Shown here: piece by piece, positions 1,506 through 48,191 of the stretch | Position numbering within the stretch: position 1 is the stretch's first letter | How the letters are laid out: every line of letters starts with the position of its first letter | Translations under genes and position numbers: made by a program | The notes under the pieces: model-generated | The model's input: only the letters and a program-made list of their open reading frames with translations | Databases searched by the model: none | What the model was told of the DNA's origin: nothing | From: a virus | Lineage: Duplodnaviria; Caudoviricetes | Length of the DNA stretch: 58,478 nt | IMG/VR virus record: IMGVR_UViG_3300046010_007871 | Span: 1 to 58,478 of that record | Direction: 5' to 3' (one strand)

Positions 1506-2375
1506 ATGTCCAATCTCGTCACAACCAACAGCCGTTTTGACACCGCACAAATCGACCTGATCAAGCGCACCATCGCGAAGGGCAGCACCGACGACGAGCT
1601 GACCCTGTTCGTCGAGCAATGTAAGCGCACTGGGTTAGACCCATTCGCGCGCCAAATCTACGCCGTCAAGCGGTGGGATAGCCGCGAGCGCCGCGAGGTC
1701 ATGTCCATTCAGGTCGGCATCGACGGGTTCCGACTCGTGGCCGACCGCACGGGCAAGTATCAGGGGCAACTCGGGCCGTTCTGGTGCGGCAAGGATGGCC
1801 AGTGGCGCGACGTGTGGCTCAGCGACGAGCCGCCCGCTGCGGCCAAGGTCGGCGTGCTGCGCTCGGACTTCCGCGAGCCGCTGTGGGCCGTGGCTAGGTT
1901 TAGCTCCTACGTGCAGACGAGCAAAGAGGGAGCGCCCACGCGCTTTTGGGCGCAGATGCCCGACCTGATGATCGCCAAGGTCGCCGAGGCCCTGGCATTG
2001 CGCAAGGCGTTCCCGCACGAGCTCTCTGGCCTCTACACCGCCGAGGAGATGGCGCAGGCCGAGAACGTGGCCCCCGCGCCAGTGCCTGTCGCTGCGCCTC
2101 GCCAGGTGGCCGCGCAGCGCCCGCAGCAGGCTCGCCCCGCGCCGGTGCCAGCGCCCGTGGTGCCAGACGCAGAGGTGGAGGCCGACGACGCCGACACGTT
2201 CAGCCCGGTGCTCGGGTTGTTGCACGACCTCACGCTTGTATCGAACGCCGAGGAGCTCGCGCTCGTGCGCGAGCAGCTCGTGGCGATCAAGCCGTCGTGC
2301 ACTCGCGAGCAGATCGCCAGCCTCGGGCAGGCATACAAGACCGCAGAGAAGCGCATCGCCGAGGTCCAGGCGTGA
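1506..2375 (+). CDS. bet: Phage recombination protein Bet (RecT/Redbeta ssDNA annealing)
   Basis: [58 protein letters not shown]. Confidence 0.95.
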
Positions 2376-2614
2376 GCGCATACGTGGAGCAAGCCATCGT
2401 AGTGGCAGACCACGAGGCCGAGGTGCGCCTCGTGATTGAGCCTGGATACATTGACGATCGCGACCGTGAATGCCTGCGATTCATGGTCACGATCAAAAAC
2501 TCCACGGGCGAGCTTCGCTTGCCTGTGCCAGATGCCAAGACACTCGCAAAGCGCCTGCTTGAGCAGGCTCTTGGCCATGCGGTTAAGCTGACCATCAGGC
2601 GGGGAGCGCGATGA
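2372..2614 (+). CDS. Hypothetical protein
   Basis: GTG start overlaps the bet stop (GTGA). Confidence 0.55.
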
Positions 2615-2699
2615 ATATTCTAGAAGCAAACAGGCTGCGCCGACCCCGAGGGAGGATGGCGGCGGGTGGACGTACGCCACGTGGTCGTGGGGTGGAAGG

Positions 2700-3308
2700 G
2701 TGGAAGGCGAAGCCGTGAAGCCTAACAAGCCGGTAGCGAGAAGAAAAGACTACCAGTTTGACGAGGGGTCGCACGGCGAGGCTGTCGAACTAATCCGTGC
2801 TTACCACTACGCGAAAGGGGCCGCGAACACCTCGACGGCGAGAACAATCATGCGGCGCGAGCAGCGAGCCGTAGGCGCCGCTCTTTGGATGCCACCGACA
2901 GCAGGAGCGGCTAAGGCCCTCGCCAAGAGGCACCTTGGAAGCGAAAACCTGCACAAGAAAGTGCTCGCTCTCTCTCGCCTCGTTGTAGTTCCAGGCGAAC
3001 CGCAAAATGCCGCTGGTATTCTGCTGGGGAGAACGACGAAAGACGTTGCGCGCGACGAGAGATGGGCGCTCCTCGTCACCTACGCGGACGAGGCGCAAGG
3101 ACACGAAGGAACGATCTACCGAGCCACAGGCTGGACATTTGACGGGTTCACCGAGCCGCAAATCGCTTGGCATTTGGACGGAAAACAGGTTTCCCGCCTC
3201 TCTACCAAATCAAGAACCTATGAAGAAATGAGAGCGATCGGAGCAACACAGTCGAAGTCAAGAAAGAGAAGGTTTTACAAGATTGTAGGGACGGTGCGCG
3301 ATGAATGA
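2700..3308 (+). CDS. Mom-like adenine modification protein (GNAT fold)
   Basis: YHY near the N-terminus, LSRLV, LVTYADEAQGHEGTIYRATGW and a C-terminal KRRF resemble Mu Mom-family proteins. Confidence 0.75.
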   Translation: MEGEAVKPNKPVARRKDYQFDEGSHGEAVELIRAYHYAKGAANTSTARTIMRREQRAVGAALWMPPTAGAAKALAKRHLGSENLHKKVLALSRLVVVPGEPQNAAGILLGRTTKDVARDERWALLVTYADEAQGHEGTIYRATGWTFDGFTEPQIAWHLDGKQVSRLSTKSRTYEEMRAIGATQSKSRKRRFYKIVGTVRDE

Positions 3309-3332
3309 TTGCATCGCAGAGGCGGTCGGAAA

Positions 3333-4478
3333 GTGAAGCTCCCCACAGCATCAAGCTTTGACCTCGCGTCGAAGTGCGCGCACCCGTGGACCAGCGGCAT
3401 CCCGTGGTCGCGCCCCGATGACCCATCGGTGTTCGCCTTTGGCAACGCCGTGCACGAAGCCGCCGAGCTCGCCGTTGGCTGCGGTGAGGTCGACCTCGTC
3501 AGGCTCGCGAGCAAGTACGAGCTGGGCCGAGACGACGTGCGACGCCTGGGCGCTACGGCGCGCAGCGCGTTCGACCGCGTCAACGCATACGCCGCCGAGG
3601 GCTGGCTCATGTTTGCCGAAGTCGCGGTGGCGTACCACGTCGGCAAGCGCACTGTGCGCCTGATCGACAAGTACACCCACCGGCAGGCCAACCAGGCCAA
3701 GCCTGGCGAGCTCATCGGAATCATCGACCTCGTGTGCGTGCGCCATGGACAGGTGCACGTGGCCGACTGGAAAACCGGCACGTGGCAGCGCGACGCTACG
3801 CCGGGGCTGCAGGTGCAGTTCGCCGCGATGGCAGTGGCCAAGCTCGTGGGCGCCGATAGCGCCTCGGGCTCGCTGCTCTACGTGGACGAGCGCGGCGTGC
3901 GCGAGGTGTCGGCCTCGTGGGAGTGCTGGGACCTCGACAGCACCGCCGACGTGCTGCGGCGCATCCATGAGACCACCAGCGGCGCGCCGACGCCGCCAGT
4001 CGCAGGAGACTGGTGCAAGCGCTGCAACATCCTGGGCAAGTGCTCGGCCACCGCCCTGGCCGTGCGCGACGTCGAGAGCGTGGCCACGAGCATCGCCACA
4101 GCCGAGGATGCCGCGCGCATCCACGAGATGATGCCCGCACTCGAAAAAACGCTAAAGCTCGCCCGCGAGCGCATCCGCGAGATGGCATCACGAGCGCCGA
4201 TCCCGCTCAGCAGCGGCAAGCGTCTCGTGGTGCAAGAGCGCACCCGCACGACGGTATCGGACCTCACGCCAGAGGCCGTGGCCTACCTCAATGCTCAGCA
4301 GCTACAGGCCGCGCTGGAGTTCTCGACGAGCGCCGCGGCCATCAAGCGCGTAGGTGGCGCAAAGGTCGAGCGACAAGTGATGGCGCACCTGCGCGAGATG
4401 GGATGCGTCAAGGAGAGCGTCTATACGACGCTCGCAGAGGTAGCAGATAAGGGAGGAAACAACGATGACACCGCGTGA
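3333..4478 (+). CDS. PD-(D/E)XK exonuclease (Cas4/AddB-like, DUF2800-like), probable Bet partner
   Basis: GNAVHE, AEVAVAY, GIIDLV, VADWKTG, LQVQF and the WCKRC...C Cys cluster. Confidence 0.85.
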   Translation: MKLPTASSFDLASKCAHPWTSGIPWSRPDDPSVFAFGNAVHEAAELAVGCGEVDLVRLASKYELGRDDVRRLGATARSAFDRVNAYAAEGWLMFAEVAVAYHVGKRTVRLIDKYTHRQANQAKPGELIGIIDLVCVRHGQVHVADWKTGTWQRDATPGLQVQFAAMAVAKLVGADSASGSLLYVDERGVREVSASWECWDLDSTADVLRRIHETTSGAPTPPVAGDWCKRCNILGKCSATALAVRDVESVATSIATAEDAARIHEMMPALEKTLKLARERIREMASRAPIPLSSGKRLVVQERTRTTVSDLTPEAVAYLNAQQLQAALEFSTSAAAIKRVGGAKVERQVMAHLREMGCVKESVYTTLAEVADKGGNNDDTA

Positions 4479-4650
4479 CTTCTATGTGCTCGCCCGCGAC
4501 GGCGAACGCTCCGAGCTGCTAGACCTGTTTGACGCGCTGGCAGAGAGCCGCAAGGTGCGCGGCGCTTGCGTCGTGCGTGCGAGCGACGGTAAGCGAATGA
4601 GCGAGACCGTGAGGGGCCACGTCATGCCACAGCGCCCCGAGGAGCGATGA
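4465..4650 (+). CDS. Hypothetical protein
   Basis: GGAGG RBS; overlaps the dUTPase start. Confidence 0.5.
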   Translation: MTPRDFYVLARDGERSELLDLFDALAESRKVRGACVVRASDGKRMSETVRGHVMPQRPEER

Positions 4651-5132
4651 CCGTGCCCTACTTGTCCGATCTCGACGTGTGCGTGCAGTTGACCAGGCCC
4701 ACGGGCACGCTGCCAGAGCGAGCCACCGATGGCGCCAGCGGCTACGACCTGCGCATGGCCGGATGGCGCTGGCCATGGTCGCAGGAGGTGCAGCACGGGC
4801 ACCTAATCCTCGACGCAGGCGAGCGAGCGCTAGTGCTCACCGGCCTCGCCATGTCGCTCTCGGAGGGCTGGGAGGCGCAGATCCGTGGGCGTAGCGGGCT
4901 CGCGCTAAAGCACGGGCTACAGGTCGCCTTCGGCACGATCGACAGCGACTATCGAGGCGAGGTAGGCGTGATCGTCTACAACGTCGGCGACCGCATCACG
5001 CTTCGGCCTGGCGACCGCATCGCGCAGATGGTGTTCGCTCGCGTGCCTCGCGTGCGGCTGCTCGAGGTGGCAGAGCTCACGAGCACCACCAACCGCGGCG
5101 TCGGTGGCTTCGGCTCCACGGGGCAGTCGTGA
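4647..5132 (+). CDS. dut: dUTPase (trimeric)
   Basis: ASGYDL, RSGLA, GTIDSDYRGE, RIAQ, RGVGGFGSTG. Confidence 0.97.
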   Translation: MTVPYLSDLDVCVQLTRPTGTLPERATDGASGYDLRMAGWRWPWSQEVQHGHLILDAGERALVLTGLAMSLSEGWEAQIRGRSGLALKHGLQVAFGTIDSDYRGEVGVIVYNVGDRITLRPGDRIAQMVFARVPRVRLLEVAELTSTTNRGVGGFGSTGQS

Positions 5133-5374
5133 CAACCTACGCTCGCATGATGCGAGATCTACTCGGAACCGAAAAGCGCCCAACTCGACGACAAGGATCC
5201 ATGACGCCCACCCACGACGAGGAGATGGCCCACGAGCGCGCCTACTGGCACGAGCGCATCGTCGAGGCCCTGCAGCGCGTGCGTCAACTCGACGCCGACC
5301 TGACAGCCGCGCGCGACGACAACAAGCGGCTCGTGGCCGAGCTGCGCGAGCTGCGCGAAAGGCTGCCCAGATGA
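5129..5374 (+). CDS. Hypothetical coiled-coil protein
   Basis: Overlaps both neighbours; heptad-like C-terminus. Confidence 0.55.
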   Translation: MTTYARMMRDLLGTEKRPTRRQGSMTPTHDEEMAHERAYWHERIVEALQRVRQLDADLTAARDDNKRLVAELRELRERLPR

Positions 5375-7146
5375 TCCAGCTGCACCACGGAGACTGTCTA
5401 GACGTGCTCCGCACCATGCCAGACGCCAGCGTCGACGCCATCGTGACCGACCCTCCGTACGGCCTGCGCTTCATGGGGAAGAAGTGGGATTACGACGTGC
5501 CCACGACAGAGGTGTGGGCCGAGTGCCTGCGGGTGCTCAAGCCTGGCGGGCACCTGCTCGCGTTCGCAGGCACCAGGACGCAGCACCGGATGGCGGTGCG
5601 GATTGAGGATGCAGGGTTCGAGATTAGAGATCTGATCATGTATTGCTACGGGTCAGGATTTCCAAAAAGTACAGACATATCGCGGCGCATTGATTTAGAA
5701 GAGCAAAAAAGATGGCTTGACGTTTCCAAGGCGCTTGACAACTTGGAAACTGCGGCCATAATGGAAGCATGGAAAGACCACTCAAAAGCTGCGAGCACTG
5801 CGGGGCTCTCATTCGCAAAGAGCCCAACCGCAACTGGAATCAGTACGCCAAAAAGCGGTTTTGCTCCCGAGCCTGTTCTGCTGCAAGCCGATCAAGAAAG
5901 CAGCGATGCACTTGCGCTGGTTGCGGAGTTGAGTTTCAAAGAAGCCCATCTCACGTCCAAAGCGGAGATCAATTCTGCTCCCATGCCTGCCGCCGCAAAC
6001 GAATCACAAGACCCTGTGAAGTGTGCGGAACACTCACTGAAAAGATCCAATGCAATATCTACGAACGCTGGTATTGCTCAATGCGCTGTCAAGGAATGGC
6101 CAAGCGCAAGCATGGGGGGCAATCTCAAGGCCGTCGAAGCCCTGAGGATCTGGCTTGGAAGCAAGCCGTCATCAATGCAGGCAGTTACAAATGCGCTATG
6201 TGCGGTACTGACCGCCGACTTGAAGCACATCACGTTAAGCCAATCAAAGACTTTCCAGAGCTTCGACACGACACGTCAAACGGCTTGTGCGTCTGCCATC
6301 AGTGTCACTATTACGGAATCCATGGCGGAAAGCCTAATCTCATTCACGGTCGATACGCTAAGAAAACAAGCGATTGACCGGGCGGCAGGAGCGGAGCGGG
6401 AAGTCACCGCCCCCGCCACCGACGCCGCTCGCCGATGGCAAGGCTGGGGCACCGCGCTCAAGCCCGCCCTGGAGCCGATCACCGTGGCCCGCAAGCCCCT
6501 GGAGGGCACCGTGGCCGCCAACGTGCTGCAGTGGGGAACTGGTGGGATCAACGTGGACGGGTGCAGAGTGGGCACCGACCTCATCACCCAGCACGGGCGA
6601 GGAGACAGCGCGAATATTGCTATGTCTGGGCGAAACTACGCTGAAGAAGCTGGGCGCAAGTGGACCGGTCGCTGGCCCGCCAACCTGATCCATGACGGCA
6701 GCGAGGAGGTGGTGGGGTTGTTTCCGCAGGGACGCAGTAGTGGTATATATTCTCCGACTGACCACTCTCAAGGCAAACGTGCAAAATGGGTAATAAACTT
6801 CGGCGGAATGGGGGTCCCCTCTGTTATGTATTCCGACAGCGGCAGCGCCGCCCGCTTCTTCTACACCGCAAAGGCCGATGCGACAGACCGAAACGATGGG
6901 CTCTCACCAGGCGAACGCAATAAGCACCCAACGGTCAAGCCGGTTGACCTGATGTGCTACTTGTGCCGACTCGTGACGCCGCCAGGTGGCATCGTGCTCG
7001 ACCCATTCATGGGCAGTGGCAGCACCGGCAAGGCATGCGTGACTGAGGGGTTCAGCTTCATCGGAATCGAGCGAGACGCCGACAGTTTCGCCACCGCGCA
7101 AGCGCGCGTGGTATCGCCGATGCCACTGTTCAAGGATGTGCTGTGA
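5371..7146 (+). CDS. DNA N6-adenine/N4-cytosine methyltransferase (beta class) with a large in-frame insertion
   Basis: HGDCL, VTDPPY, YGSGFPKS, GWGTALKPA, HPTVKP, LDPFMGSGSTG; ATG 5371 overlaps the upstream stop. Confidence 0.92.
   Translation: MIQLHHGDCLDVLRTMPDASVDAIVTDPPYGLRFMGKKWDYDVPTTEVWAECLRVLKPGGHLLAFAGTRTQHRMAVRIEDAGFEIRDLIMYCYGSGFPKSTDISRRIDLEEQKRWLDVSKALDNLETAAIMEAWKDHSKAASTAGLSFAKSPTATGISTPKSGFAPEPVLLQADQESSDALALVAELSFKEAHLTSKAEINSAPMPAAANESQDPVKCAEHSLKRSNAISTNAGIAQCAVKEWPSASMGGNLKAVEALRIWLGSKPSSMQAVTNALCAVLTADLKHITLSQSKTFQSFDTTRQTACASAISVTITESMAESLISFTVDTLRKQAIDRAAGAEREVTAPATDAARRWQGWGTALKPALEPITVARKPLEGTVAANVLQWGTGGINVDGCRVGTDLITQHGRGDSANIAMSGRNYAEEAGRKWTGRWPANLIHDGSEEVVGLFPQGRSSGIYSPTDHSQGKRAKWVINFGGMGVPSVMYSDSGSAARFFYTAKADATDRNDGLSPGERNKHPTVKPVDLMCYLCRLVTPPGGIVLDPFMGSGSTGKACVTEGFSFIGIERDADSFATAQARVVSPMPLFKDVL
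5769..6377 (+). CDS. HNH endonuclease with three Cys zinc-finger repeats, nested out of frame inside the methyltransferase
   Basis: CxxCG...(F/Y)CSxxC three times, then CAMCG-LEAHHVKP-NGLCVCHQCH. Confidence 0.85.
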   Translation: MERPLKSCEHCGALIRKEPNRNWNQYAKKRFCSRACSAASRSRKQRCTCAGCGVEFQRSPSHVQSGDQFCSHACRRKRITRPCEVCGTLTEKIQCNIYERWYCSMRCQGMAKRKHGGQSQGRRSPEDLAWKQAVINAGSYKCAMCGTDRRLEAHHVKPIKDFPELRHDTSNGLCVCHQCHYYGIHGGKPNLIHGRYAKKTSD

Positions 7147-7961
7147 TGACCTACGCCGCACGCATTCTTGCCGACAGTCTCGCGCCGAGTGGCGTGCGGC
7201 TCACCACGTTTGAGGTCACGTTCCCGCGCTTCATCCTGGCCGAGTGGAACACGCACCGCATGCTCTCGCGCAACGCTGCGAGCTCGCGCGCCGTGCCAGT
7301 GCGCAAGCTGCTCGAGCAGGTCGAGACCGAGCCCTTCGTGCCCGAGTACTGGGGAGCCAACAGGCCAGGCATGCAGGCCACCGAGGAGCTACCCGAGCGC
7401 GACGCAGCAGACGCTCGCGCCACGTGGCTACAGGCTCGCGACGCAGCGTGCGACCACGCCCGAGTCTTGATGAGCCTCGGCGCGCACAAGCAGCTCGCAA
7501 ACAGGCTGCTCGAGCCGTTCTTGTGGTGCACTGTCATCGTCAGCGCCACCACGTGGGACAACCTATTCACCCTGCGATGCCACGCCGACGCACAGCCAGA
7601 GTTCCGGCGCATCGCATGCATGATGCGCGACGAGCTTGGCACATCCACGCCACGAGCACTCGCCATCGGCGACTGGCACTTGCCGCTCGCGCCAGACGTC
7701 GACGAGCTGCAGGCCGAGGGCTACACCATCGACGAGCGCGCGCGCATCAGCGCCGCCAGGTGCGCTCGCGTGAGCTATCTTACCCACGATGGCAAGCGCG
7801 TGCCTGCCACCGACCTAGAGCTCGCGCGCAGGCTCCTCGAGGCTGGCCACATGAGCCCGTTCGAGCACGTTGCGCAGCCCAGCAGCCAAGAGCACACGCG
7901 CAGCGGCAACTTCCACGGCTGGTATCAATACCGAAAGCGCCTCGAAAGCCGCGCTTTGTAA
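7143..7961 (+). CDS. thyX: FAD-dependent thymidylate synthase
   Basis: NTHRMLSRNAASSRA, HKQLANRLLEPF, LRCHADAQPE, ARCARVSY, HMSPFEH. Confidence 0.93.
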   Translation: MMTYAARILADSLAPSGVRLTTFEVTFPRFILAEWNTHRMLSRNAASSRAVPVRKLLEQVETEPFVPEYWGANRPGMQATEELPERDAADARATWLQARDAACDHARVLMSLGAHKQLANRLLEPFLWCTVIVSATTWDNLFTLRCHADAQPEFRRIACMMRDELGTSTPRALAIGDWHLPLAPDVDELQAEGYTIDERARISAARCARVSYLTHDGKRVPATDLELARRLLEAGHMSPFEHVAQPSSQEHTRSGNFHGWYQYRKRLESRAL

Positions 7962-7989
7962 CAATCGACATCGGGCGTGTAAAAAAGAC

Positions 7990-8046
7990 TTGCGCGCTGC
8001 GCTGGCTGCGCTATTGTCTCCGTACCGACACCCCACAGCGGGACGG
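7990..8046 (+). promoter_or_regulatory. Promoter (TTGCGC-16-TATTGT) plus conserved leader hairpin, copy 1
   Basis: A-tract upstream; hairpin ccgACACCCCacagcGGGAcgg at 8025-8046. Confidence 0.65.
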
Positions 8047-8063
8047 CAACAAGGAGAGAACCA

Positions 8064-8282
8064 GTGACCACGCGACAGAACTACATCGATTTCTGCCAGG
8101 AACATGGAACCGATCCGGTCGAGTACGAAAACCAAGTGCTTTCGATCGGCAGCGAATACTTGCCCGGGTGTGCGCGCCGTGTCCGCGACAGCGGAAAAGC
8201 GAGCGCTGCCTACTGGCGCTGGTTGACAGAGCAGCTGGCTTTGGAAATCATGGAAAACGAGTGCCGACCCAGCTTTGATTGA
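8064..8282 (+). CDS. Small hypothetical early protein
   Basis: AAGGAG RBS before GTG. Confidence 0.7.
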   Translation: MTTRQNYIDFCQEHGTDPVEYENQVLSIGSEYLPGCARRVRDSGKASAAYWRWLTEQLALEIMENECRPSFD

Positions 8283-8336
8283 CACGACACATCACACGAG
8301 ATACATCACGACCACGGACACCCCACAGCGGGACCG
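8279..8336 (+). promoter_or_regulatory. Promoter (TTGACA-17-TACATC) plus leader hairpin, copy 2
   Basis: Hairpin cggACACCCCacagcGGGAccg at 8315-8336. Confidence 0.7.
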
Positions 8337-8355
8337 ACAGGAGACCAAGGAGACC

Positions 8356-8547
8356 ATGACCATGATCATCAGCATTCGAGCAAATCAACTGCGAGTAGGC
8401 GACAAGCTCGTCGCCATCGAGTACGTGTATAACGAGAAGATCACCAAGCTCACCACGCTGCCCAACGGCAGCGTCGAGATCATCATGGGCCGCGGGCGTC
8501 GCGTGCGCACCGTCGCCCCCACCACCGAGTGCGAGGTGTCGCGATGA
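8356..8547 (+). CDS. Small hypothetical protein (beta-rich, SH3-like)
   Basis: AAGGAG RBS; ANQLRVGD motif. Confidence 0.65.
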   Translation: MTMIISIRANQLRVGDKLVAIEYVYNEKITKLTTLPNGSVEIIMGRGRRVRTVAPTTECEVSR

Positions 8548-8927
8548 GCGCCGCCGCACTGCAGCCGAGCCCCGAGCTGTGGGCCGAGATGCGCCGCAGC
8601 AAGCAGCTGTTCTTCAGCGTCGGCTACCCCTATCACAGCACCTACCTTGCGCAGCCCGAGCGCGCGGGTTTCATGCTGTGGCGCAACGAGTGGGGCCAGC
8701 CGATGCTCGACATCGTCGGCCCGTGCAAGGGCAAGAGGCAGTGGCAAAAGACGGTCACCGAGGGCTGGCGGCAGGCCCTTGAGGTCATCCCCGCCGACCT
8801 CTTTGCATGGGGCCCGCTCTTGCGCGACTTCGGAGACTACGGCACCACCATGGCCTTGCACAAGCTCGGGCGCATCAGCGCGTGCGATACGCGCGTGGCC
8901 ATCGCGGAGATGACGACGCGGGCTTGA
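8544..8927 (+). CDS. Hypothetical protein
   Basis: GAGG RBS, ATGA overlap. Confidence 0.6.
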   Translation: MSAAALQPSPELWAEMRRSKQLFFSVGYPYHSTYLAQPERAGFMLWRNEWGQPMLDIVGPCKGKRQWQKTVTEGWRQALEVIPADLFAWGPLLRDFGDYGTTMALHKLGRISACDTRVAIAEMTTRA

Positions 8928-8983
8928 CACGACCTTTCACGCGAGATACATCACGACCATGCCGACACCCCACGAGGGACGGC
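8924..8983 (+). promoter_or_regulatory. Promoter (TTGACA-17-TACATC) plus leader hairpin, copy 3
   Basis: Near-identical to the copy 2 promoter; hairpin gccgACACCCCacgaGGGAcggc at 8961-8983. Confidence 0.7.
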
Positions 8984-8998
8984 CACAACGGAGACACC

Positions 8999-9625
8999 AT
9001 GATCATCAACTGGTACCAAGCAGGACTTAGCAAAAAAGCATGGGATGGCAGCCATAACGACGTGGCCTTCGCGGGCCATGTCGACGCGAACCCGCAGCTT
9101 GTGTTCTGGCCCACGTGGCCAGAGCGAATCCGAGCACTGGGCGCGGTGCGCATCATCGACTGCGAGCGCATGCACGCGATCGCTCGAAACTGGACGGCAG
9201 TGGCGCAGCCCTCAGTCCGACCGATGTCGGACGACCAGTGCAGCCGCTACCACTTCGAGGGATGGGCGCTGTCTCGCCTCATCGCGTCCGAGCTCTGCGC
9301 CATCGAGGCCATCGAGAGGCGCGATGGCGAAGAGGCCGCGATGATCATCGAGGCGGCGCAAGCCTCGTCGTCGATGACCATTGAGCCCAACTCGTGGGCG
9401 CATCAGTCGGCGCACACGGCGATGGCATGGCAGTACGATGGCCCGCACGAGTGCGTCAAGCTCATGCTGGCTCGACGCGGATTCCGCGTGTGCTCGGCGT
9501 ACGAGCACTCGGTCGAATACCCCGACAGGCGAGGCCAGACGTGGCTCGAGCCACGCCAGCCGCCACGAACGGACTGGCTCGCGGAGGCCAAGGCCTTCTG
9601 GCTGACGAAGCGAGGTGCGCTGTGA
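8999..9625 (+). CDS. Hypothetical protein (probable paralog of the next gene)
   Basis: GGAG RBS; C-terminal PRTDWLAEAKAFW. Confidence 0.65.
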   Translation: MIINWYQAGLSKKAWDGSHNDVAFAGHVDANPQLVFWPTWPERIRALGAVRIIDCERMHAIARNWTAVAQPSVRPMSDDQCSRYHFEGWALSRLIASELCAIEAIERRDGEEAAMIIEAAQASSSMTIEPNSWAHQSAHTAMAWQYDGPHECVKLMLARRGFRVCSAYEHSVEYPDRRGQTWLEPRQPPRTDWLAEAKAFWLTKRGAL

Positions 9626-10209
9626 GCGCCGTGTCCGTACGCTGGCGCAAGAGCGGCACGGTGGCCGCTTTCACGTCGCCCGGCGACCCATGGTGGTCGC
9701 TCGAGCGAGACTGGCACGTGCGCGCGCACCTGGCTGGGTGCGTCGCCATCCTCGACTATCAGGTCATGGCCGCGGCTGGTGACCTGCCAGGCGCGACCTA
9801 CAGCGGCGACACCATCACGTTTACCGGCGAGGCCCTAGCAGCGTTGCGCGCCTCGGAGCTGGCCGCCGTGGAGCGCCTTGAGCAGCAGGGCATGGCCGAC
9901 GCGGAGCGGCTGTTTGCCGTGGCAAAGGCAAACGACTGGCGGCTGCCCGCGGAGGCGCCAATCACGAGCGCAAAGTACGACGGCGAAACGATCGTCCGCA
10001 CGCGGCTCTACGTGCTCAGCCGCGACGCGGCGTGGCACCAGATGCACGACGCACTCGGCCTGTGTGTCGAGCGGTTGGGGTACCAGATCGGATGGCGCGA
10101 CAGCTTCATGCCGTGCGCGACCGCACAGCTCGTGCCCCTCGAGGGGCCGCGCGTTGACTGGCTCGAGGAGAGCCGAGCCTACTGGCAATTGCAAGGAGTG
10201 GAGCCATGA
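9622..10209 (+). CDS. Hypothetical protein
   Basis: GTGA overlap; C-terminal PRVDWLEESRAYW. Confidence 0.65.
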   Translation: MSAVSVRWRKSGTVAAFTSPGDPWWSLERDWHVRAHLAGCVAILDYQVMAAAGDLPGATYSGDTITFTGEALAALRASELAAVERLEQQGMADAERLFAVAKANDWRLPAEAPITSAKYDGETIVRTRLYVLSRDAAWHQMHDALGLCVERLGYQIGWRDSFMPCATAQLVPLEGPRVDWLEESRAYWQLQGVEP

Positions 10210-10490
10210 CCATCTCACGCAAAGCACTGGCTTCCATCCGCGCAGCGCTGCACCAGATCGGCGCCGCCATCCGAGACGAGGTACAGCAGGAGCGCTCCAC
10301 GCTCATCGGCGCCGAGTACGTGCGTGGCGGCTGCGATGGCATCTGGACCGTCAAGCTCGACACGGGCAACACAGTGCAGCTGCGGTGCGGCGACCGCTAT
10401 GCGTTCGTGGCGCGCTCCGAGCTCGACGGCCCGCTGTGGACCCGCCTCGACCGCGTCTACGGCACCACGCCCACGCAGGGCGACGCGTGA
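10206..10490 (+). CDS. Hypothetical protein
   Basis: GGAG RBS, ATGA overlap. Confidence 0.6.
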   Translation: MTISRKALASIRAALHQIGAAIRDEVQQERSTLIGAEYVRGGCDGIWTVKLDTGNTVQLRCGDRYAFVARSELDGPLWTRLDRVYGTTPTQGDA

Positions 10491-10759
10491 CCACCGACTT
10501 CGACGTGCGGCTGCTCGAGCTGGTCGAGCAGCTGCGCGAGGGAGAAACCACCATGCGACGAGAGTACAACCACAGCCCGCTCGGCCTGCTACCGAGCACG
10601 GGCAAGTCAACGATCAACATCCGCTACAGCCTGCCAGTGGAGCTCGTGGACTGGGTGCGCTCGGAGTCGCAGGCGCTAGGCATCAGCGCGAGCGAGTTTG
10701 TCGAGGCGCAGCTCGACACCGCGCGCGACAACTGGGACGACATCCACAGCGACGACTAG
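10487..10759 (+). CDS. Ribbon-helix-helix (CopG-like) DNA-binding protein
   Basis: INIRYSLPVELVDWVRSESQALGISASEFVEAQL fits the RHH pattern. Confidence 0.65.
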   Translation: MTTDFDVRLLELVEQLREGETTMRREYNHSPLGLLPSTGKSTINIRYSLPVELVDWVRSESQALGISASEFVEAQLDTARDNWDDIHSDD

Positions 10760-10780
10760 TCAAGCGCAAAACGACGTCGC

Positions 10781-10818
10781 AAAAAAACGCACCTGCTTGC
10801 CATGGGTGCGTTTTTTTT
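10781..10818. terminator. Intrinsic terminator, potentially bidirectional
   Basis: AAAAAAACGCACC-loop-GGTGCGTTTTTTTT. Confidence 0.8.
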
Positions 10819-10820
10819 AC

Positions 10821-10885
10821 TTGCGCATCTGCCAGGCTGCGCTATTGTCTCTCTCGTCAGCAGCGGACACCCCGAGCGGGACCGC
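10821..10885 (+). promoter_or_regulatory. Promoter (TTGCGC-16-TATTGT) plus leader hairpin, copy 4
   Basis: Shares ACTTGCGC...GGCTGCGCTATTGTCTC with copy 1; hairpin gcggACACCCCgagcGGGAccgc at 10863-10885. Confidence 0.65.
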
Positions 10886-10904
10886 GACAACCAGGAGACC
10901 GACG

Positions 10905-11321
10905 ATGGACAAGCTAAGCATTCGCAACCACGTGTATTCCACCGGCAGCTCGTACGCTCCGATCAAGAGCGTGACGCCGTGGCAACAGCGCCTTGCGCCC
11001 AGCGCCGGCAGCGCGTACCAGCCCGAGCCGCCGCGCGATGCGGTGCTCGAGATGATCGTAGTGATGGACAACCCCGCGACCGGATATGGGGTTGAGTACG
11101 AGGTTCTGATCTGCGCAGACCTGATTCCTGCGCAAAACGGCGGCATGTGGGACCCCAGCTGGCCCGCCCACTTCGGCGAGGCCGAGGCATGGTACCACCG
11201 CGAGAACCGAGGTTGGAAGCGCCTCGAGCTCGACAGGCAGGGCGTGGCTCAGGTGGAGCGCGAGCTTGAGCGCGAGATGAGCTACATCGAGGTATACGGC
11301 CCGCGGGCCATGACTCGCTAG
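10905..11321 (+). CDS. Hypothetical protein
   Basis: AGGAG RBS after the hairpin. Confidence 0.65.
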   Translation: MDKLSIRNHVYSTGSSYAPIKSVTPWQQRLAPSAGSAYQPEPPRDAVLEMIVVMDNPATGYGVEYEVLICADLIPAQNGGMWDPSWPAHFGEAEAWYHRENRGWKRLELDRQGVAQVERELEREMSYIEVYGPRAMTR

Positions 11322-11323
11322 GC

Positions 11324-11372
11324 CACAAAAGCACGAAGCGCCCAGGTCATGCCTGGGCGTTGTCGTTTTGTG
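11324..11372. terminator. Hairpin between the convergent early and late blocks
   Basis: CGCCCAGG-tcatg-CCTGGGCG flanked by CACAAAA and TTTTGTG. Confidence 0.65.
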
Positions 11373-11401
11373 CAACGTGTAAGCTTAGCTTACCGGTTGG
11401 G

Positions 11402-11680
11402 TCAACTCCATTTTTCGCGGTCGCTCCAGTAGGCCGCGCTCAGCTTGCCCTTGGCGATGTTCTTGGCGTGCCGAGCCTTGAACGACTTGCGCCGCGCCTT
11501 GGCTGCCTCGCTCTCGCCCTCTCGAGGTGGCGAGCCCTTGGTGCCCTGCTCGCCGAACCTGATTAGCTTGATCACGTCGCCCTCTTTCGCGAGCACGGCG
11601 TGGCTCTTGGTCGGGTGATTGGGCGTGCGCTTGGGCTTGTTGTAGCCAGCGAAACGTTCTCCTCGGTACTCAAGAGCCAT
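11402..11680 (-). CDS. Conserved small basic phage protein
   Basis: GYNKPKRTPNHPTKSHAVLAK...IRFG...SFKARH...SAAYW, a motif I recognise from other phages. Confidence 0.8.
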   Translation of the reverse strand: MALEYRGERFAGYNKPKRTPNHPTKSHAVLAKEGDVIKLIRFGEQGTKGSPPREGESEAAKARRKSFKARHAKNIAKGKLSAAYWSDREKWS

Positions 11681-11689
11681 GATGCCTCC

Positions 11690-12232
11690 TCACTTTGCCT
11701 TGACGAGCACGACGGTCATCGAGTAGTCCACGTGCGCCGCGTTGTGCTTGGTCGTGCCGCCGCGCTGCACGATCGAGCCAGGGTCACGCGAGCGCAGGTA
11801 GAAGCCGAAGATGGCCGTGCGGCCCACGGGCGCCTGCACCCAGTGCTTTCCGATGGTCCACGGCATCTGTCCCTCCTCGAGCTGCGCGAGCTTGAGCGCC
11901 ACGCACACGTCGTGGCGCCGTGCCCACTCAGGGCTCGACATGCGGTGGTCTGGCGGCTGCGCGCACATGCTGACGATGCGCACCTGCGGGTCGCGCGCGA
12001 TGGCCTCGCACTCTGCCGCCGTGGGCAACCTAGCGCCGAGCTCTACTGCCACCTCACGCGCACGGCGCTCGGATGCACGCGCCCACACGATGCCCTGCTC
12101 GGCCTCAGGCCCGGTGGTGCGTAGCGGCTCGCGCGTCACGAGCAGCCCAGGCAGCGCCGCCAGCTCGACCCACTCAGGCGCGCCAAAGTGCTCCAGCGCA
12201 GTCTCGTAGCGCCCGACGTTAGGCAGCGTCAC
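11690..12232 (-). CDS. Hypothetical protein
   Basis: In operon with neighbours; GARLPT and HVDYS motifs. Confidence 0.6.
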   Translation of the reverse strand: MTLPNVGRYETALEHFGAPEWVELAALPGLLVTREPLRTTGPEAEQGIVWARASERRAREVAVELGARLPTAAECEAIARDPQVRIVSMCAQPPDHRMSSPEWARRHDVCVALKLAQLEEGQMPWTIGKHWVQAPVGRTAIFGFYLRSRDPGSIVQRGGTTKHNAAHVDYSMTVVLVKAK

Positions 12233-40184: not shown

Positions 40185-40624
40185 CAGCGCGTGATCGCCT
40201 GACCAATGATCGTGACGGACTGCGAAGCACCGGCGCTTGTGCCGGTTCCACCGTCGAACAGCAGCCGCATCATGTCACCCCACGCGCCGCCTAGGATGGT
40301 GTCGACCGCGAGCGCGGCGCTGAGGCCAGAGCCGATCGTGGTAGCAGCGGTCACAGCCGTGGTGCGGTTGACCTGATACGCGCTAAGCGATGCAGCAGCA
40401 CCCGCGCTCAGCTGCGGAAAGTGCGCGTAGTCATACCAGGTCGTGCCGCCGTCGTATGACGTCTGTAGGTACACGTCGAGCGTGCCACCGGTGCCGCCTT
40501 GCAGGTTGCCGATGATGGTCAACGCATCGAAGCCGGAAAGACCGCCGACGATGCCAGTGCTGGGCGCGTTCGGGCTTGCTGCGCTTGGGCTTGTGGCCGT
40601 GATGGTGACAATCTTCGGGCGCAT
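40184..40624 (-). CDS. Virion structural protein (hypothetical)
   Basis: LDVYLQTSYDGGTTWYD, similar to 34187-34612. Confidence 0.55.
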   Translation of the reverse strand: MRPKIVTITATSPSAASPNAPSTGIVGGLSGFDALTIIGNLQGGTGGTLDVYLQTSYDGGTTWYDYAHFPQLSAGAAASLSAYQVNRTTAVTAATTIGSGLSAALAVDTILGGAWGDMMRLLFDGGTGTSAGASQSVTIIGQAITR

Positions 40625-41980: not shown

Positions 41981-42112
41981 GGCGCCGAGAGTAGGAGGGC
42001 GCGCACGCGGAGGGGATACACGGCGCGCCCAGCTGACGAGGGACCGACGCCAGCACCACGCCAAACGAGGGAGACACGTCTAGCTGTGGCGAGCAAGAGC
42101 ATACGCTGTAGC

Positions 42113-42460
42113 CTAATCATGAGCAACCGCGTCGAGTGTAGGGCTCGACTCCACGCTATCTACCACGCTCGCGAACATCTGCGCCAGTCGAGTGTTGCGA
42201 GCGTAGGCATTTCGCTCGATCCCATGTGCTCGCCCCATGCACACGCACCGGCAGATGTTGCACGCGGCTGCCTTGCAGCGCTTGCCGCATGCGTGAGGCG
42301 AAGCCACTGGCGACACATACACCACGCGCAGCCACCGCAAACACCTCGAGCACGTGCGCCCAAAGCCAGGAAGCGGCAGCTGCAAGCCGTCGCATGGCGT
42401 GGCGTCGTCGAGCTCGGTCACCACGAGCTGGCACGCGTCGCAGTGGCCAACGAGCTTCAA
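42113..42460 (-). CDS. Cys-rich zinc-binding protein
   Basis: CDAC, CSRC, CGKRCKAAACNICRCVCMGRAHG. Confidence 0.6.
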   Translation of the reverse strand: MKLVGHCDACQLVVTELDDATPCDGLQLPLPGFGRTCSRCLRWLRVVYVSPVASPHACGKRCKAAACNICRCVCMGRAHGIERNAYARNTRLAQMFASVVDSVESSPTLDAVAHD

Positions 42461-43044
42461 TCCTGCACCATCTCCCAGGCTGACGAGTATGCGCTATTCG
42501 CGAACAGCGCTGCCACGCCAGCCACCTGCTTATATCGGTGCACGGCGTCGAGCTCCATGCCGAGTCGTTGCGCCACTTCTTGCTCGGTCAATCCTTGCTC
42601 GATGAGCGAGCGCACCACGTCTGCGTCGAGGTCAATCGCGTGCACCCCTCGAGCCTTGTTGAACTGGACGGTCGCTGCCATCCGCTTCGTCATATCGTGC
42701 GAGAGCACCACGACAGGCAAGTAGTCGAAGTCCAAGAACTCGTCGCTACCGATGCGCGATCGGTGGAAGCCATCAATGATGACAAACACCCCGTCAGCAT
42801 CATCCCAGATGGTGACGATCGGAAAGCAGAATCCGTTGTCCAGCACGCTTTGCTGTAGTAGCTCCATCTTGTCGGAGCTGACCGCGTTGGGGTTGTATGT
42901 GTTCGCTACGACCAGTTCTCTTTTTACGAGCAGCGTGTTGGCGCATGGCACAAGCACCTGGCCTCGGGTGCGGCTCTGAATGTACACCGGCTGCATCTGT
43001 GCTCGCTCGGCTAGAAAGTCTTGCATTGTATCTATGCGCTTCAT
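42457..43044 (-). CDS. ibrB: IbrB-like ParB-N domain protein
   Basis: ANTYNPNAV...LLQQS...GFCFPIV...IIDGFHR...ATVQFNKARG. Confidence 0.88.
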   Translation of the reverse strand: MKRIDTMQDFLAERAQMQPVYIQSRTRGQVLVPCANTLLVKRELVVANTYNPNAVSSDKMELLQQSVLDNGFCFPIVTIWDDADGVFVIIDGFHRSRIGSDEFLDFDYLPVVVLSHDMTKRMAATVQFNKARGVHAIDLDADVVRSLIEQGLTEQEVAQRLGMELDAVHRYKQVAGVAALFANSAYSSAWEMVQD

Positions 43045-44204
43045 CACATCACCCCTTCGTAGTACGCCAGCAAGCTCTCCCGGTGCACTTGCCACGGGTC
43101 TGGCTTGTTATCGATCGGCAGGTTGTTTTCGTAGTCATTGAGCACCAGTTGTCGGCACTGCTGGCGCGCAACGTATTCGTTTTGTAGTTGAGCCTCAAAG
43201 CGCGCCTCAAAGATTGGTCGCCGCGCTTGGTCAAGATGTGTGGCTAGCAACAAATTGCGATAAGCTGTCCACGTCTTGTGAGCCTTCGGCAGCTTGGTGC
43301 ACTTGAGCATCTTGGCTGCCTTGCCTGTCTCTTGGGCAAGGGCGATGCCCTTGATGCGCTTCAGCAATCGCTCGTAGGTCTTTGGCTCAAACTCGGGGAG
43401 GTCGGCAATCGACTTGAAAGCGCGCTCGTGAATCAACGACGAGATGCGCATCTGCGTCGGATAGACGCCCTTCTTGTGCATGTGGTCATAGACTTTATGA
43501 TATTGCAACTTCTCGTCGTGGATGTATCTCCACACGTCCGAGACGTCCCAGTCGAATACTGGGTAAAGCGTCCAGTTTCTGCCTCGCTTGCTGCCCCAAT
43601 AGACTTGTTGCCCACCGATGGTAACTGGATGGTCTACAACGGCGCGCCATCGGTTAAGCGACTCGCCCTTGGCACGCAAGCCCACGAGCCACGCCGTGTG
43701 ATCGTAGCATCGCTCGAAGTTCTGAATGACGCCGTAAAAGTCGAGCCTCTTGCAACCTGAGCGAAATCGCTCTTGGGCTTCTGGCCATGGCTTGTGCTTG
43801 ATGGTGCCAGGCGCGTTGCGCTTCTTGCGCATCCATCGCGCGCTCTCGCCTGGCGCCCACGCTTGCAGCTCGGCCTCGCTTACGCTGGTAGCGTTGGTCA
43901 GCGTGAACGGCACCTGCAGCCACAGCGGCGTGGTGTTTTCTGGGTAGAGCTGCATCATGTACTCCACCTGTTCGATGGTGGACTGATACATCGCCTCCTC
44001 GTCAAGGAAAAACAAACCGATGCGTCGATTGCGTCTGTTTGCTTCCACGAGTGCAAGATGAGCCAGCACGGTGCTGTCTTTGCCACCGCTGATGGAGCAG
44101 ATAATCTGCTTGATGTGTCCCAGCTCTACCTGGTCAAACAGCCAGGAGATGCGTCGCCTTGCGGCTGCTAGTACGGTCTCACCGGTCAAGATTTTGCGCG
44201 GCAT
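43044..44204 (-). CDS. ibrA: IbrA-like PAPS-reductase-family protein (DUF3440)
   Basis: SISGGKDS, LDEEAMY, VGLRA..ESLNR, YPVFDW...DVW, MRISS. Confidence 0.88.
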   Translation of the reverse strand: MPRKILTGETVLAAARRRISWLFDQVELGHIKQIICSISGGKDSTVLAHLALVEANRRNRRIGLFFLDEEAMYQSTIEQVEYMMQLYPENTTPLWLQVPFTLTNATSVSEAELQAWAPGESARWMRKKRNAPGTIKHKPWPEAQERFRSGCKRLDFYGVIQNFERCYDHTAWLVGLRAKGESLNRWRAVVDHPVTIGGQQVYWGSKRGRNWTLYPVFDWDVSDVWRYIHDEKLQYHKVYDHMHKKGVYPTQMRISSLIHERAFKSIADLPEFEPKTYERLLKRIKGIALAQETGKAAKMLKCTKLPKAHKTWTAYRNLLLATHLDQARRPIFEARFEAQLQNEYVARQQCRQLVLNDYENNLPIDNKPDPWQVHRESLLAYYEGVM

Positions 44205-45625: not shown

Positions 45626-46242
45626 GTTGCCGTCCTTTCGAGGCGCGTCGCGTTCATCTCGGTGCCGCGAAACGACGCACCGAGCTTGTGTGCCCACCTG
45701 GCCGTCATGCCGAGCCCCGTGCATGGGTCGAGGACGAGGTGGTTTGGCTGCACGCAACAGGAGAGAACATGCTTGGTTACCGGCTCGCCGTGAGGCACTT
45801 CGGGCCAGTCTCGGTCAATCTCTTGCGTCAGCATGTGCAGGCGAGGCATGGCCTCTGCCCGACCGAACAGGTTGAGCGTGACCGGCAAGGGCTTGCTCTT
45901 CGGGCCGTACGTCATCATCCATTGGCGCACGTGCTCAAAGCCATGCGCTGCCATGGTCTCCGAGAGCTGGTCAGCCCACCGGCATCCCATCTCGATGAAC
46001 ACAGGCGCCTCTGGTTTGGTGTGCGCCATGGCAACGCCTGCGAAGGCGTCGAGGAACTTTTCCCATGACGTGCGCGGAGCAGAGCCTCGCTCGCGCATCG
46101 TGTGCCAGTATTGCTGATTCCCAGGCCCCCACGGTGGGTCGCTGTAGAGCACGTCCGCGAGCTCTGCGCCCATGAGCTGCGAGACCGCAGCGGTCGTAAT
46201 GTCGCCCACCATGAGGGCGTGCGTGCCGATTTGAATCTTCAT
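45601..46242 (-). CDS. DNA methyltransferase (N6/N4 beta-like)
   Basis: HALMVGD, YSDPPW, VLDPCTGLGMTA...GTEMN. Confidence 0.8.
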   Translation of the reverse strand: MKIQIGTHALMVGDITTAAVSQLMGAELADVLYSDPPWGPGNQQYWHTMRERGSAPRTSWEKFLDAFAGVAMAHTKPEAPVFIEMGCRWADQLSETMAAHGFEHVRQWMMTYGPKSKPLPVTLNLFGRAEAMPRLHMLTQEIDRDWPEVPHGEPVTKHVLSCCVQPNHLVLDPCTGLGMTARWAHKLGASFRGTEMNATRLERTATWLRSKCR

Positions 46243-46475
46243 CGGTCCTTTGCGATCTGGTATGCGAGCTCGCGCACCTGCGTCGCACTGAGGTTGCGCC
46301 AGAAGGTACCGGCGCTCGACATATGTGGATTCTTGTTGCAGAAGATTCTAGCCTGGCGAGCCAGGGCGGCGCGACGCGACGAGCTGAGGTTGCGGAAGGC
46401 GACGACCGATTGGTTGCTCCAGTCGGCGTGGAGGTGCGCGGCTAGGATGTTGTCCATGTCTTGAAGCTGTTTCAT
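46239..46475 (-). CDS. Small protein, tandem copy B
   Basis: Shares SVVAFRNLSSSRRAAL...LSATQVRELAYQIAK with copy A. Confidence 0.7.
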   Translation of the reverse strand: MKQLQDMDNILAAHLHADWSNQSVVAFRNLSSSRRAALARQARIFCNKNPHMSSAGTFWRNLSATQVRELAYQIAKDR

Positions 46476-46478
46476 CGG

Positions 46479-46664
46479 TCAGCCCTTTGCGATCTGGTAT
46501 GCCAGCTCGCGCACCTGGGTGGCGCTCAGGCCTTGCCACCACTTACCCGCGCTCGCCATGTGCGGGTTTTGGTTGCAGTAGATGCGAGCCTGTCGCGACA
46601 GGGCGGCGCGGCGCGACGAGCTGAGGTTGCGGAAGGCGACGACCGAGGGGTTGTTGTTGTCCAT
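46479..46664 (-). CDS. Small protein, tandem copy A
   Basis: First gene after a near-consensus promoter. Confidence 0.7.
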   Translation of the reverse strand: MDNNNPSVVAFRNLSSSRRAALSRQARIYCNQNPHMASAGKWWQGLSATQVRELAYQIAKG

Positions 46665-47520: not shown

Positions 47521-48191
47521 TGTCGGATGGCCTCTGCAGGCACGGCGATCGGCACTTCTAGCCACCTGGTCCAGTAGGGGTAGGTGAGCGTGCCTTGGCT
47601 GAGCTGCGCCTGGTCCGAGAGGCCAGGATAGTCGGCTGGCAGGTTGCGCATCGGCATGCCATCTCGCAGCACTGGGAAGCCAGGCCACAGCTCGTCGTCG
47701 CGCATCTCACGCACGGCCCACGCGATGACTCGCCCGCATCCGGTCGAGCGCTTCTTGCCCACGTACGAGATGAGCTGCAGCAACCGCCACACCTCGTCTC
47801 GGTCGCCGACGCACCACCAGGTCATGCGGTCACCTGCAGCGTGAAACGTGCGCAGAGGCAGCCGATACGAGCGAGCCGCGCCTGCATCGATGCGATACGA
47901 CCGAAACCGTTGCTCTCCCAGTGCTTGCGCCTCTTGCTGCGGGAAGCGTCGGTTGATCCACCGCTGCTCTGACTCCTCCACCTCGCAGTGTCCGACGCTG
48001 GCGAGGTGAAAGCGTCGCGAGTCATGCCATGCGACTGGGATGTCGACATGCCTTAGCTCGGTCTCTAACGGGGCGTTGTAGATGCCCTGCTCCATGGCGA
48101 CGGCTGCGGCGAGCAGCCCATCGAGTGCGAGCGGTCCGTTTGGCAGCGCTACGGCGCCTCGGAGCGTTGCGACGACCTCGAGCGCCCTCAC
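47517..48191 (-). CDS. csf3: Type IV Cas5-like RAMP (Csf3)
   Basis: LALDGLLAAA, VGD...LL...VGKKRSTGCGRV G-rich loop, MRNLP, YPYW. Confidence 0.85.
   Translation of the reverse strand: MRALEVVATLRGAVALPNGPLALDGLLAAAVAMEQGIYNAPLETELRHVDIPVAWHDSRRFHLASVGHCEVEESEQRWINRRFPQQEAQALGEQRFRSYRIDAGAARSYRLPLRTFHAAGDRMTWWCVGDRDEVWRLLQLISYVGKKRSTGCGRVIAWAVREMRDDELWPGFPVLRDGMPMRNLPADYPGLSDQAQLSQGTLTYPYWTRWLEVPIAVPAEAIRQ

Follow-up and report, generated by a model that had tools for sequence, protein, structure and literature searches.

A small covarying hairpin in the predicted leaders of ORFan gene cassettes of an uncultured freshwater myovirus

The IMG/VR virus record IMGVR_UViG_3300046010_007871 (58,478 bp; analyzed over positions 1-58,478 and called the window in the following) carries four copies of a hairpin of 22-23 nt with seven base pairs, each situated shortly upstream of the Shine-Dalgarno (SD) sequence of an ORFan gene. 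Based on the evidence presented here, we consider it somewhat probable that the element is a hairpin of the leader RNA, embedded in an expression cassette which resembles the PeSLs of T4-type phages, and that it also supplies the homology at which such cassettes are exchanged. The function at the RNA level is what we infer from its structure and position. Judging from the comparison with known systems, the hairpin as such appears to be new; the kind of cassette is already known from the PeSLs.

Results

Repetition of the hairpin in the window and in close relatives

A search of the window with the pattern ACACCCC-N{3,7}-GGGA returned four matches, all on the plus strand, at an expectation of 0.05; a count of four was reached in none of 100 shuffled sequences. 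After relaxing the pattern to two mismatches, 12 matches were found versus 12.1 expected, so the extra matches are at chance level. The four copies (Table 1) are separated by 290, 647 and 1902 nt, with whole genes in between. Their middle outer-stem pair is C-G in copies 1 and 3 and G-C in copies 2 and 4. An earlier note, made from the sequence alone, had listed these four copies; all its coordinates and sequences were confirmed, and the window copies are as it described them, with a swapped outer stem, a constant ACA/A internal loop, a constant CCC/GGG inner stem and a varying terminal loop.

Altogether, 27 copies were collected from five records, i.e., the window, two viral relatives (G001 and G002) and two metagenome contigs, and all of them lie on the plus strand, co-oriented with the genes. 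Five copies are present in G001 (58,059 bp) and six in G002 (38,508 bp), all forward, and a control with the reversed pattern gave no match. Both metagenome contigs, with six copies each, were obtained in a protein-anchored scan. With the first 15 copies as the basis of a covariance model, the 27 copies scored 39.5-48.3 bits; the next best score in the window and the two relatives was 14.5 bits.

Constraint on base pairing

To describe the variation of the structure, the 27 copies were aligned and reduced to 14 distinct rows, representing six paralogue types. Pairs 1-3 of the outer stem are Watson-Crick pairs in every row. One of the outer pairs is C-G in seven rows and G-C in the other seven, another is C-G in 12 rows and U-A in two, and uncompensated changes were found in no copy. 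A fourth outer pair is formed in 8 of the 14 rows, and the inner C3/G3 helix does not vary in any of them. Overall, 93.9% of the cells are paired, and the covariation score was reached by none of 500 shuffles. It dropped to at most 0.03 when the pairing partner was slid by one to three columns, and the same picture of covariation emerged from the first 15 copies alone. The earlier note had made its proposal depend on covariation in homologs, which is present, with two compensated pairs across the 14 rows.

Between the 27 copies, 351 pairwise comparisons are possible, and in 300 of these both flanks are less than 60% identical (means of 27% and 35%). Nevertheless, the 11-nt core is identical in all 300. 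The loop varies in sequence, and its length between CCCC and GGG is either 4 or 5 nt. Covariation, together with a constant core beside diverged flanks, points to selection on a folded strand and on a sequence-specific core. Thus, the alignment supports the view that the element is a real, selected, base-paired structure. A cmscan of positions 7000-12000 against Rfam, with E-values up to 10 and with the CRISPR-repeat families included, gave two unrelated weak matches and none at the hairpins.

Position of the hairpin before gene starts

In the window, there are four units, each with a hairpin ahead of its first gene, and genes with a start overlapping the preceding stop codon are devoid of a hairpin. 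The distance between the end of the core and the start codon is 13-25 nt in all 27 copies, and the open reading frames (ORFs) which follow have 43-210 codons. The hairpin is succeeded by a short, semi-conserved, A/C-rich stretch. There is no T-run behind the stem, and none of the four window sites was listed as terminator-like. Further, the minimum-free-energy fold of the leader contains the hairpin in 23 of the 27 copies; most of these folds leave the SD unpaired.

Two promoter-like blocks, A and B, are found upstream of the window hairpins, each exactly twice in the window (Table 1); they are promoter-like only by their repetition and partial consensus. The stem begins 7, 7-8, 8-9 and 14 nt past a -10-like hexamer in the window copies, with a GGAG-type SD thereafter, and in most of the 27 copies this distance is 6-9 nt. 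A third block, type C, is seen in the relatives. It is a consensus-grade sigma-70 site ending 8 nt ahead of the stem, and it passed the sigma-70 consensus scan (10 of 12). At two places, G002 1554 and G001 8085, no recognizable promoter lies ahead of the motif, which comes here after a 43-codon ORF and two hairpins without T-run. Since the hairpin is found after three types of block, or after no recognizable promoter at all, it goes with the gene start and not with one promoter. Taking the promoter geometry as a guide, the hairpin would form the very 5′ end of the transcript in most copies, though not in all.

The 43-codon ORF, termed cassette X, is bordered by structures of its own. In G002 (1497-1549), its stop codon is followed by two GC-rich hairpins without T-run and then by the leader hairpin, and the same order is seen in G001 before 8085. 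The two GC-rich hairpins may be a 3′ end or a processing structure.

Pieces of the region were present in two metatranscriptome runs out of four runs examined, which documents presence in RNA libraries only; no meaning attaches to parts that were not covered.

Exchange of cassettes at the hairpin

Gene content was compared by pairwise blastn of the window, G001 and G002. Cassettes X and V (69 codons) are absent from the window, and cassette Y (window 8064-8282) is absent from G001. For all three, both breakpoints are located within the hairpin and leader, where the alignments overlap by 36-47 nt. In contigs of lake-water runs, 8046 is joined to 8304, and loose ends occur at 8024, 8316, 8961 and 8973/8976; each of these positions is at a hairpin. 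The same contigs also have joints away from hairpins. In the chimeric copies seen so far, e.g., the one at G001 8085, the combined arms still pair.

Occurrence beyond the close relatives

Viral contigs were scanned with patterns of 14-15 bases. Among the matches listed, most were single matches in coding sequence, and the true relatives were G001 and G002. A scan with 17 bases gave 12 viral stretches, four of them in G001 or G002. The remaining matches were rejected: four scored 18-26 bits with the covariance model and the rest fell below E 0.1, and the three that were inspected are in coding sequence with no SD or start codon after them, i.e., chance hits. In contigs of bacterial genomes, the 120 stretches listed comprised single matches only, except for one 240-nt tandem coding repeat in a metagenome-assembled genome of an actinomycete, and there was neither a prophage relative nor a host among the matches listed. 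Seven distant relatives by the large terminase subunit (TerL; 40-52% identity) and one close fragment had no covariance-model match above 17.9 bits.

Searches anchored on the 208-aa, 138-aa and 63-aa ORFans led to G001 and G002 only in the viral collection and to the two contigs in the metagenome collection. The identity of TerL homologs falls from 94% and 88% straight to 63%, and homologs of the ORFans were found only at an identity of at least 73%. As far as these searches reach, the lineage carrying the motif is narrow, and the motif was found only there. The runs containing the region are mostly labelled lake water.

An arrangement of another type was seen in a distant TerL relative, G011, in which a consensus promoter and a long, SD-containing leader without a hairpin are repeated at approximately 40370-40430 and 42030-42090. 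This module is an analogous but unrelated cassette.

Discussion

A proposed leader hairpin in a PeSL-like cassette

We propose that a few expression cassettes, which serve accessory ORFan genes, share the motif as their leader. Each cassette has the order promoter-like block, 22-23-nt hairpin, short A/C-rich spacer, GGAG-type SD and start codon. Being co-oriented with the genes and just upstream of the SD, the hairpin fits a role in leader RNA. It would act in the mRNA, where most copies would coincide with the predicted 5′ end or lie no more than about 2 nt from it. Provided that it folds there in vivo, it could protect short early transcripts against decay that depends on the 5′ end and could keep the SD clear of upstream sequence. 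The invariant ACA/A internal loop and C3/G3 helix may constitute a shared recognition handle for a phage or host protein, which would allow coordinate control. Besides, the identity of hairpin and leader over 36-47 nt would be a portable homology, either as a by-product or as a selected trait, at which cassettes are deleted, inserted and swapped, probably via the RecT-like annealing protein and the exonuclease of the phage. The earlier note had spoken of a structured protein-binding RNA element. The structured part of this claim is upheld by a selected, base-paired structure oriented with the genes just before the SD; for the binding part, an RNA-binding protein was not found in scans of 50 ORFs.

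Several observations weigh against this explanation. Pfam, PHROG and NCBIfam scans of the 50 different ORFs named no RNA-binding protein and no recombinase, and the lack of an RNA-binding partner is unfavorable. RNA fold z-scores of the window hairpins range from -0.4 to -1.3, which is no better than shuffled sequence; thus, the support for the hairpin is comparative, not thermodynamic. In addition, the hairpin is short, and it is outside the minimum-free-energy fold in 4 of the 27 leaders. The covariation is real but thin, amounting to at least two independent double changes among the six paralogue types of one narrow lineage, and as no G-U pair occurs in the 14 rows, pairing in RNA and in (single-stranded) DNA are indistinguishable. 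The promoter setting was described in the earlier note as a stem 7-14 nt past a -10-like hexamer and ahead of a GGAG-type SD. This geometry was recovered, but a strict sigma-70 consensus scan lists neither block A nor block B, and the predicted starts therefore rest on weak promoters. Where the stem begins 14 nt past the hexamer (type d: window 10863 and G002 3765) or approximately 12-13 nt past it (G002 2446), the hairpin would not be 5′-terminal. The data from the RNA runs are contigs from which start, strand and level are unreadable, and DNA carry-over is possible. Finally, a fourth difference in gene content, a 195-aa gene absent from G002, has its breaks at gene junctions and not at a hairpin.

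Relation to known elements

The element could not be assigned to a known family in the earlier note. A known counterpart does exist, namely the PeSLs of T4-type phages, in which a promoter, a stem-loop and an SD stand before ORFans and indels occur at the cassette. These cassettes were described by Arbiol, Comeau and Krisch (PMC2839356, PMC4122927). According to the account in PMC2839356, the stem-loop of one PeSL subclass lies downstream of the -10 box, and a PeSL stem-loop was shown to terminate. As far as these descriptions go, the likeness is considerable: a composite intergenic module is repeated, contains a stem-loop and has the SD at its 3′ end, PeSLs having a host-type promoter; it is mostly found before ORFans in a variable region, and indels or replacements between close relatives break inside the module. 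In contrast, the hairpin studied here is small (seven pairs), nearly invariant in sequence and has covarying pairs. It is promoter-independent, with three promoter-like types and none in two contexts, and it has no U-tract, is not terminator-like and lies downstream of its own promoter-like block. Moreover, the phage, a myovirus of 58 kb, is not of the T4 type, and its TerL has less than 32% identity to that of any cultured phage. Membership among the PeSLs thus fails on two features, since the phage is not T4-type and the stem-loop is not terminator-like. By analogy, the element seems to work like a PeSL without being one.

Cluster K mycobacteriophages contain SAS/ESAS elements, consisting of a 13-bp SAS, which includes the SD, and 17-bp inverted repeats (PMC3203893). 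As described there, they are dispersed repeats that occur in one orientation at the translation starts of some of the genes, as the hairpin does here, and roughly half of the SAS copies have an imperfect inverted repeat, with a variable spacer, ahead of them (PMC3203893). Their function is given as unknown in that account, with a role in translation initiation suggested (PMC3203893). The two elements differ in sequence, size, host and phage group, and cassette shuffling at SAS sites is not part of that description (PMC3203893).

The element is like the repeats of class 1 CRISPR systems in its small GC-rich hairpin and short tail, and the genome also has csf-like genes; however, the copies here are not arrayed, there are no spacers, and whole genes lie between copies. 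Hairpins stabilizing the 5′ terminus of bacterial and phage mRNAs are short stem-loops a few nt from the 5′ end, upstream of a free SD, and need no conserved sequence. In contrast to these, the present hairpin has 11 invariant core positions, which indicates something beyond structure, and the 5′ ends here are predicted ones. Lambda-type nut sites have a conserved loop read by an N-type protein, a boxA nearby and terminators downstream. Here, the loop varies in sequence and length, and terminator-like sites are confined to a T8 hairpin and the end of the block. Integrons combine a tyrosine integrase with attC sites, which are folded sites of 57-141 nt downstream of promoterless cassettes, whereas the motif of 22-23 nt stands upstream of genes and behind promoter-like blocks.

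If our explanation holds, the PeSL principle, by which accessory phage genes travel with, and shuffle at, a small expression module of their own, would extend to an uncultured freshwater myovirus far from T4. The shared part would then be a tiny leader hairpin, invariant in sequence and under pairing constraint, and not the promoter; this would single out a post-transcriptional handle common to otherwise unrelated ORFans. Although the practical reach is limited by one narrow lineage and no known host, such a compact and easily mutated element would be convenient for work on the co-regulation and exchange of phage genes whose function is unknown.

Alternative explanations

A different function of the motif could be that of an operator in duplex DNA, at about +1 to +22, through which a phage regulator shuts off or times the ORFan promoters. 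The motif is indeed an imperfect palindrome immediately past the -10-like hexamers, which is a usual place for repressor sites, and no G-U pair singles out RNA. A candidate regulator is encoded in the same block by ORF 10487-10759, whose AlphaFold2 model has a strand-helix-helix C-terminal half and CopG/Arc proteins as top Foldseek matches. We take this protein to be probably a ribbon-helix-helix DNA-binding protein on weak evidence, since the model has a pLDDT of only 61, the Foldseek matches are non-significant (E of approximately 3), and there was no sequence match in Pfam, PHROG or PDB. Only three homologs of it were found in the representative library. Further, both arms of the motif change together at two positions without any uncompensated change, for which a dimeric DNA binder gives no reason, and the asymmetric ACA/A loop is constant and always oriented with the gene. 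The spacing of the arms varies by 1 nt, and the variation of the loop in sequence and length speaks against a rigid duplex operator. In two contexts, the motif occurs where no promoter is recognizable. Covariation, arm spacing and promoterless copies count against an operator, none of them decisively, and we regard this function as unlikely. The motif could further be a nut-like or related signal in nascent RNA, at which a protein or the polymerase itself would read the hairpin and transcription would pass downstream terminators, or at which the RNA would be cut. For such a signal, one can point to a small hairpin close behind the promoters of early-type genes, followed by a conserved A/C-rich stretch. 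The motif found within an operon, after two hairpins without T-run, is at a place where processing would be plausible. Recognition of the boxB type depends on the loop, however, and the loop is not conserved; nor was there an Rfam match. Every unit has its own promoter-like block, and the terminator-like sites within the block are only the T8 hairpin at 10781-10818 and the hairpin at 11337-11361. A signal of this kind is therefore highly improbable in our view.

The motif might also be mainly a recombination site without a role in expression, be it as short homology or as a folded single-stranded DNA hairpin like integron attC. The motif is the site of breakage for three of the four differences in gene content seen between the window, G001 and G002, more joints are found in the metagenome contigs, the phage has RecT-like and exonuclease genes, and attC recombination uses hairpins with unpaired bases. 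Yet plain homology needs neither a pairing constraint nor an invariant internal loop, and no integrase or site-specific recombinase was seen among the ORFs scanned, though not all ORFs were scanned. Expression is the better fit for a motif that has a fixed place just ahead of the SD and is missing downstream of cassettes closing the block, which leaves a pure recombination site quite unlikely. Much the same applies to a neutral remnant, i.e., a repeatedly duplicated leader kept alike by gene conversion and devoid of its own function. The lineage is narrow, the motif occurs in close relatives only and recombination among copies is evident, all as expected for such a remnant; but the flanks of the paralogues have diverged to background identity beside 11 core positions that are identical in 300 of 300 pairs, and the only positions that vary are those of the loop and compensated ones of the stem. 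We give this explanation little credit. The PeSL-like leader hairpin remains the explanation we prefer.

Is the hairpin linked to the Csf-like operon?

On the minus strand, positions 46717-50517 have a type IV-B-like layout without an array, here in a phage. The published type IV-B complex assembled on heterogeneous RNA, and the RNA that Csf3 would recognize is stated to be unknown in that report (PMC7937560). By its heterogeneous RNA, the published complex differs from what is considered here. Following a speculation of the earlier note, one may imagine that the array-less, type IV-B-like Csf complex naturally assembles on the RNA of the hairpin leaders. This has in its favor a csf1/csf2/csf3-like operon with a cysH-like gene, but no array, in the same genome, and a hairpin whose short semi-conserved tail is loosely repeat-like. 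However, the csf-like matches are far below the family cut-offs of 130-140 bits (45 versus 130 bits and similar), no Cas6-like gene was seen among the ORFs scanned, and the motif matches no CRISPR repeat in Rfam, its copies being 290-1902 nt apart with whole genes between. Apart from the window, a single record, from the same lineage, was seen to have both the motif and a csf2-like gene, and this co-occurrence is uninformative. Equally uninformative, in either direction, are two further csf2-like contigs without a hairpin match, as they are fragments (19% and 38% complete) which, by coordinate mapping, do not reach the ORFan block. Such an assembly RNA is barely credible to us.

A bolder variant is a long shot: the hairpin could be an RNA handle which marks early ORFan mRNA leaders for capture by the phage's own array-less Csf complex, as a self-directed post-transcriptional switch. 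Csf3, which is Cas5-like, would nucleate beside the hairpin, with the SD and the start codon lying under a Csf2 filament. In a weaker form, any dedicated phage protein could read the handle and shut off the whole ORFan set together.

A 175-nt tandem duplication (46242-46416 and 46479-46653, 82% identical) covers two small neighboring minus-strand ORFs (46239-46475 and 46479-46664). A second PAPS-reductase protein, combined with DUF3440, is encoded at 43044-44204 (minus strand), beside a ParB-like gene (42457-43095, minus strand) and just upstream of the terminase gene.

Genome and genes around the hairpins

The genome is that of a myovirus, with genes for a tail sheath, a baseplate wedge, a tape measure protein and the large terminase and a weak match to a portal protein. 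The best match of its TerL among cultured phages is 31.5% identical and belongs to unrelated phages. The ends of the record are identical (1-126 and 58350-58475, 100% over 126 nt). Hence, the genome is probably complete, circularly closed and about 58.35 kb in size, though the record is labelled linear and 79% complete in the collection. An RNA polymerase gene did not show up in the ORFs scanned, and the phage is presumably transcribed by the enzyme of its host.

Third-position GC content assigns genes to the plus strand from approximately 1506 to 11321 and to the minus strand in the rest of the window. The plus-strand block, in which the hairpins are located, encodes a RecT-like protein, an exonuclease, a Mom-like protein, a dUTPase, a DNA methyltransferase and a ThyX-like protein; the match to the Mom family (2700-3308, plus strand) has an E-value of 2e-19. 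Downstream of the hairpins, all eight ORFs of the window are without a Pfam or PHROG match (Table 1). The high-confidence model of the 63-aa protein of ORF 8356-8547 (pLDDT 93.8) had as its best, though weak, matches the N-terminal domain of eIF5A/EF-P. A CsrA-like fold was considered for this protein and rejected, because the model is an SH3-like barrel with such eIF5A-domain matches instead; as predicted, this barrel suggests nothing specific.

Table 1. Positions of the hairpins and of other features of the window.
Feature	Position	Strand	Remark
Promoter-like block A, copy 1	7990-8017	+	TTGCGC, 16 nt, TATTGT; exact repeat at 8004 and 10835
Hairpin copy 1	8025-8046	+	3-bp outer stem, ACA/A internal loop, CCC/GGG inner stem; covariance model 45.3 bits
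ORFan Y, 72 aa	8064-8282	+	first gene past hairpin 1; absent from G001
Promoter-like block B, copy 1	8279-8307	+	TTGACA, weak -10-like ATACAT/TACATC; exact repeat 8295/8940; repeat family D11
Hairpin copy 2	8315-8336	+	middle outer-stem pair swapped to G-C; 39.5 bits
ORFan Z, 63 aa	8356-8547	+	first gene past hairpin 2; predicted SH3-like small beta-barrel
ORFan, 127 aa	8544-8927	+	start overlaps stop of Z; no hairpin of its own
Promoter-like block B, copy 2	8924-8952	+	exact repeat of block B; repeat family D11
Hairpin copy 3	8961-8983	+	4-bp outer stem, shorter loop; 44.5 bits
ORFan, 208 aa	8999-9625	+	first gene past hairpin 3; homologs only at ≥80% identity
ORFan, 195 aa	9622-10209	+	overlapping start, no hairpin; absent from G002
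ORFan, 94 aa	10206-10490	+	overlapping start, no hairpin
ORF, 90 aa	10487-10759	+	candidate regulator, ribbon-helix-helix-like prediction
Terminator-like stem with T8	10781-10818	+	between third unit and block A copy 2; loop exceeds limit of terminator scan
Promoter-like block A, copy 2	10821-10848	+	exact repeat of block A
Hairpin copy 4	10863-10885	+	4-bp outer stem; 48.3 bits
ORFan, 138 aa	10905-11321	+	first gene past hairpin 4
Terminator-like hairpin	11337-11361	+	plus-strand block meets minus-strand block
PAPS-reductase-domain (cysH-like) ORF	46717-47688	-	follows csf-like ORFs
csf3-like ORF	47517-48191	-	44 bits, far below family cut-off
csf2-like ORF	48188-49450	-	45 bits, far below family cut-off
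csf1-like ORF	49543-50517	-	29 bits, far below family cut-off

Elsewhere on the minus strand, about eight tandem or near-tandem units of 11 nt (55813-55932) are located inside ORF 55055-56266, which adjoins a DnaB-like helicase gene (53683-55068). By their arrangement, these repeats look like origin iterons inside an initiator gene.

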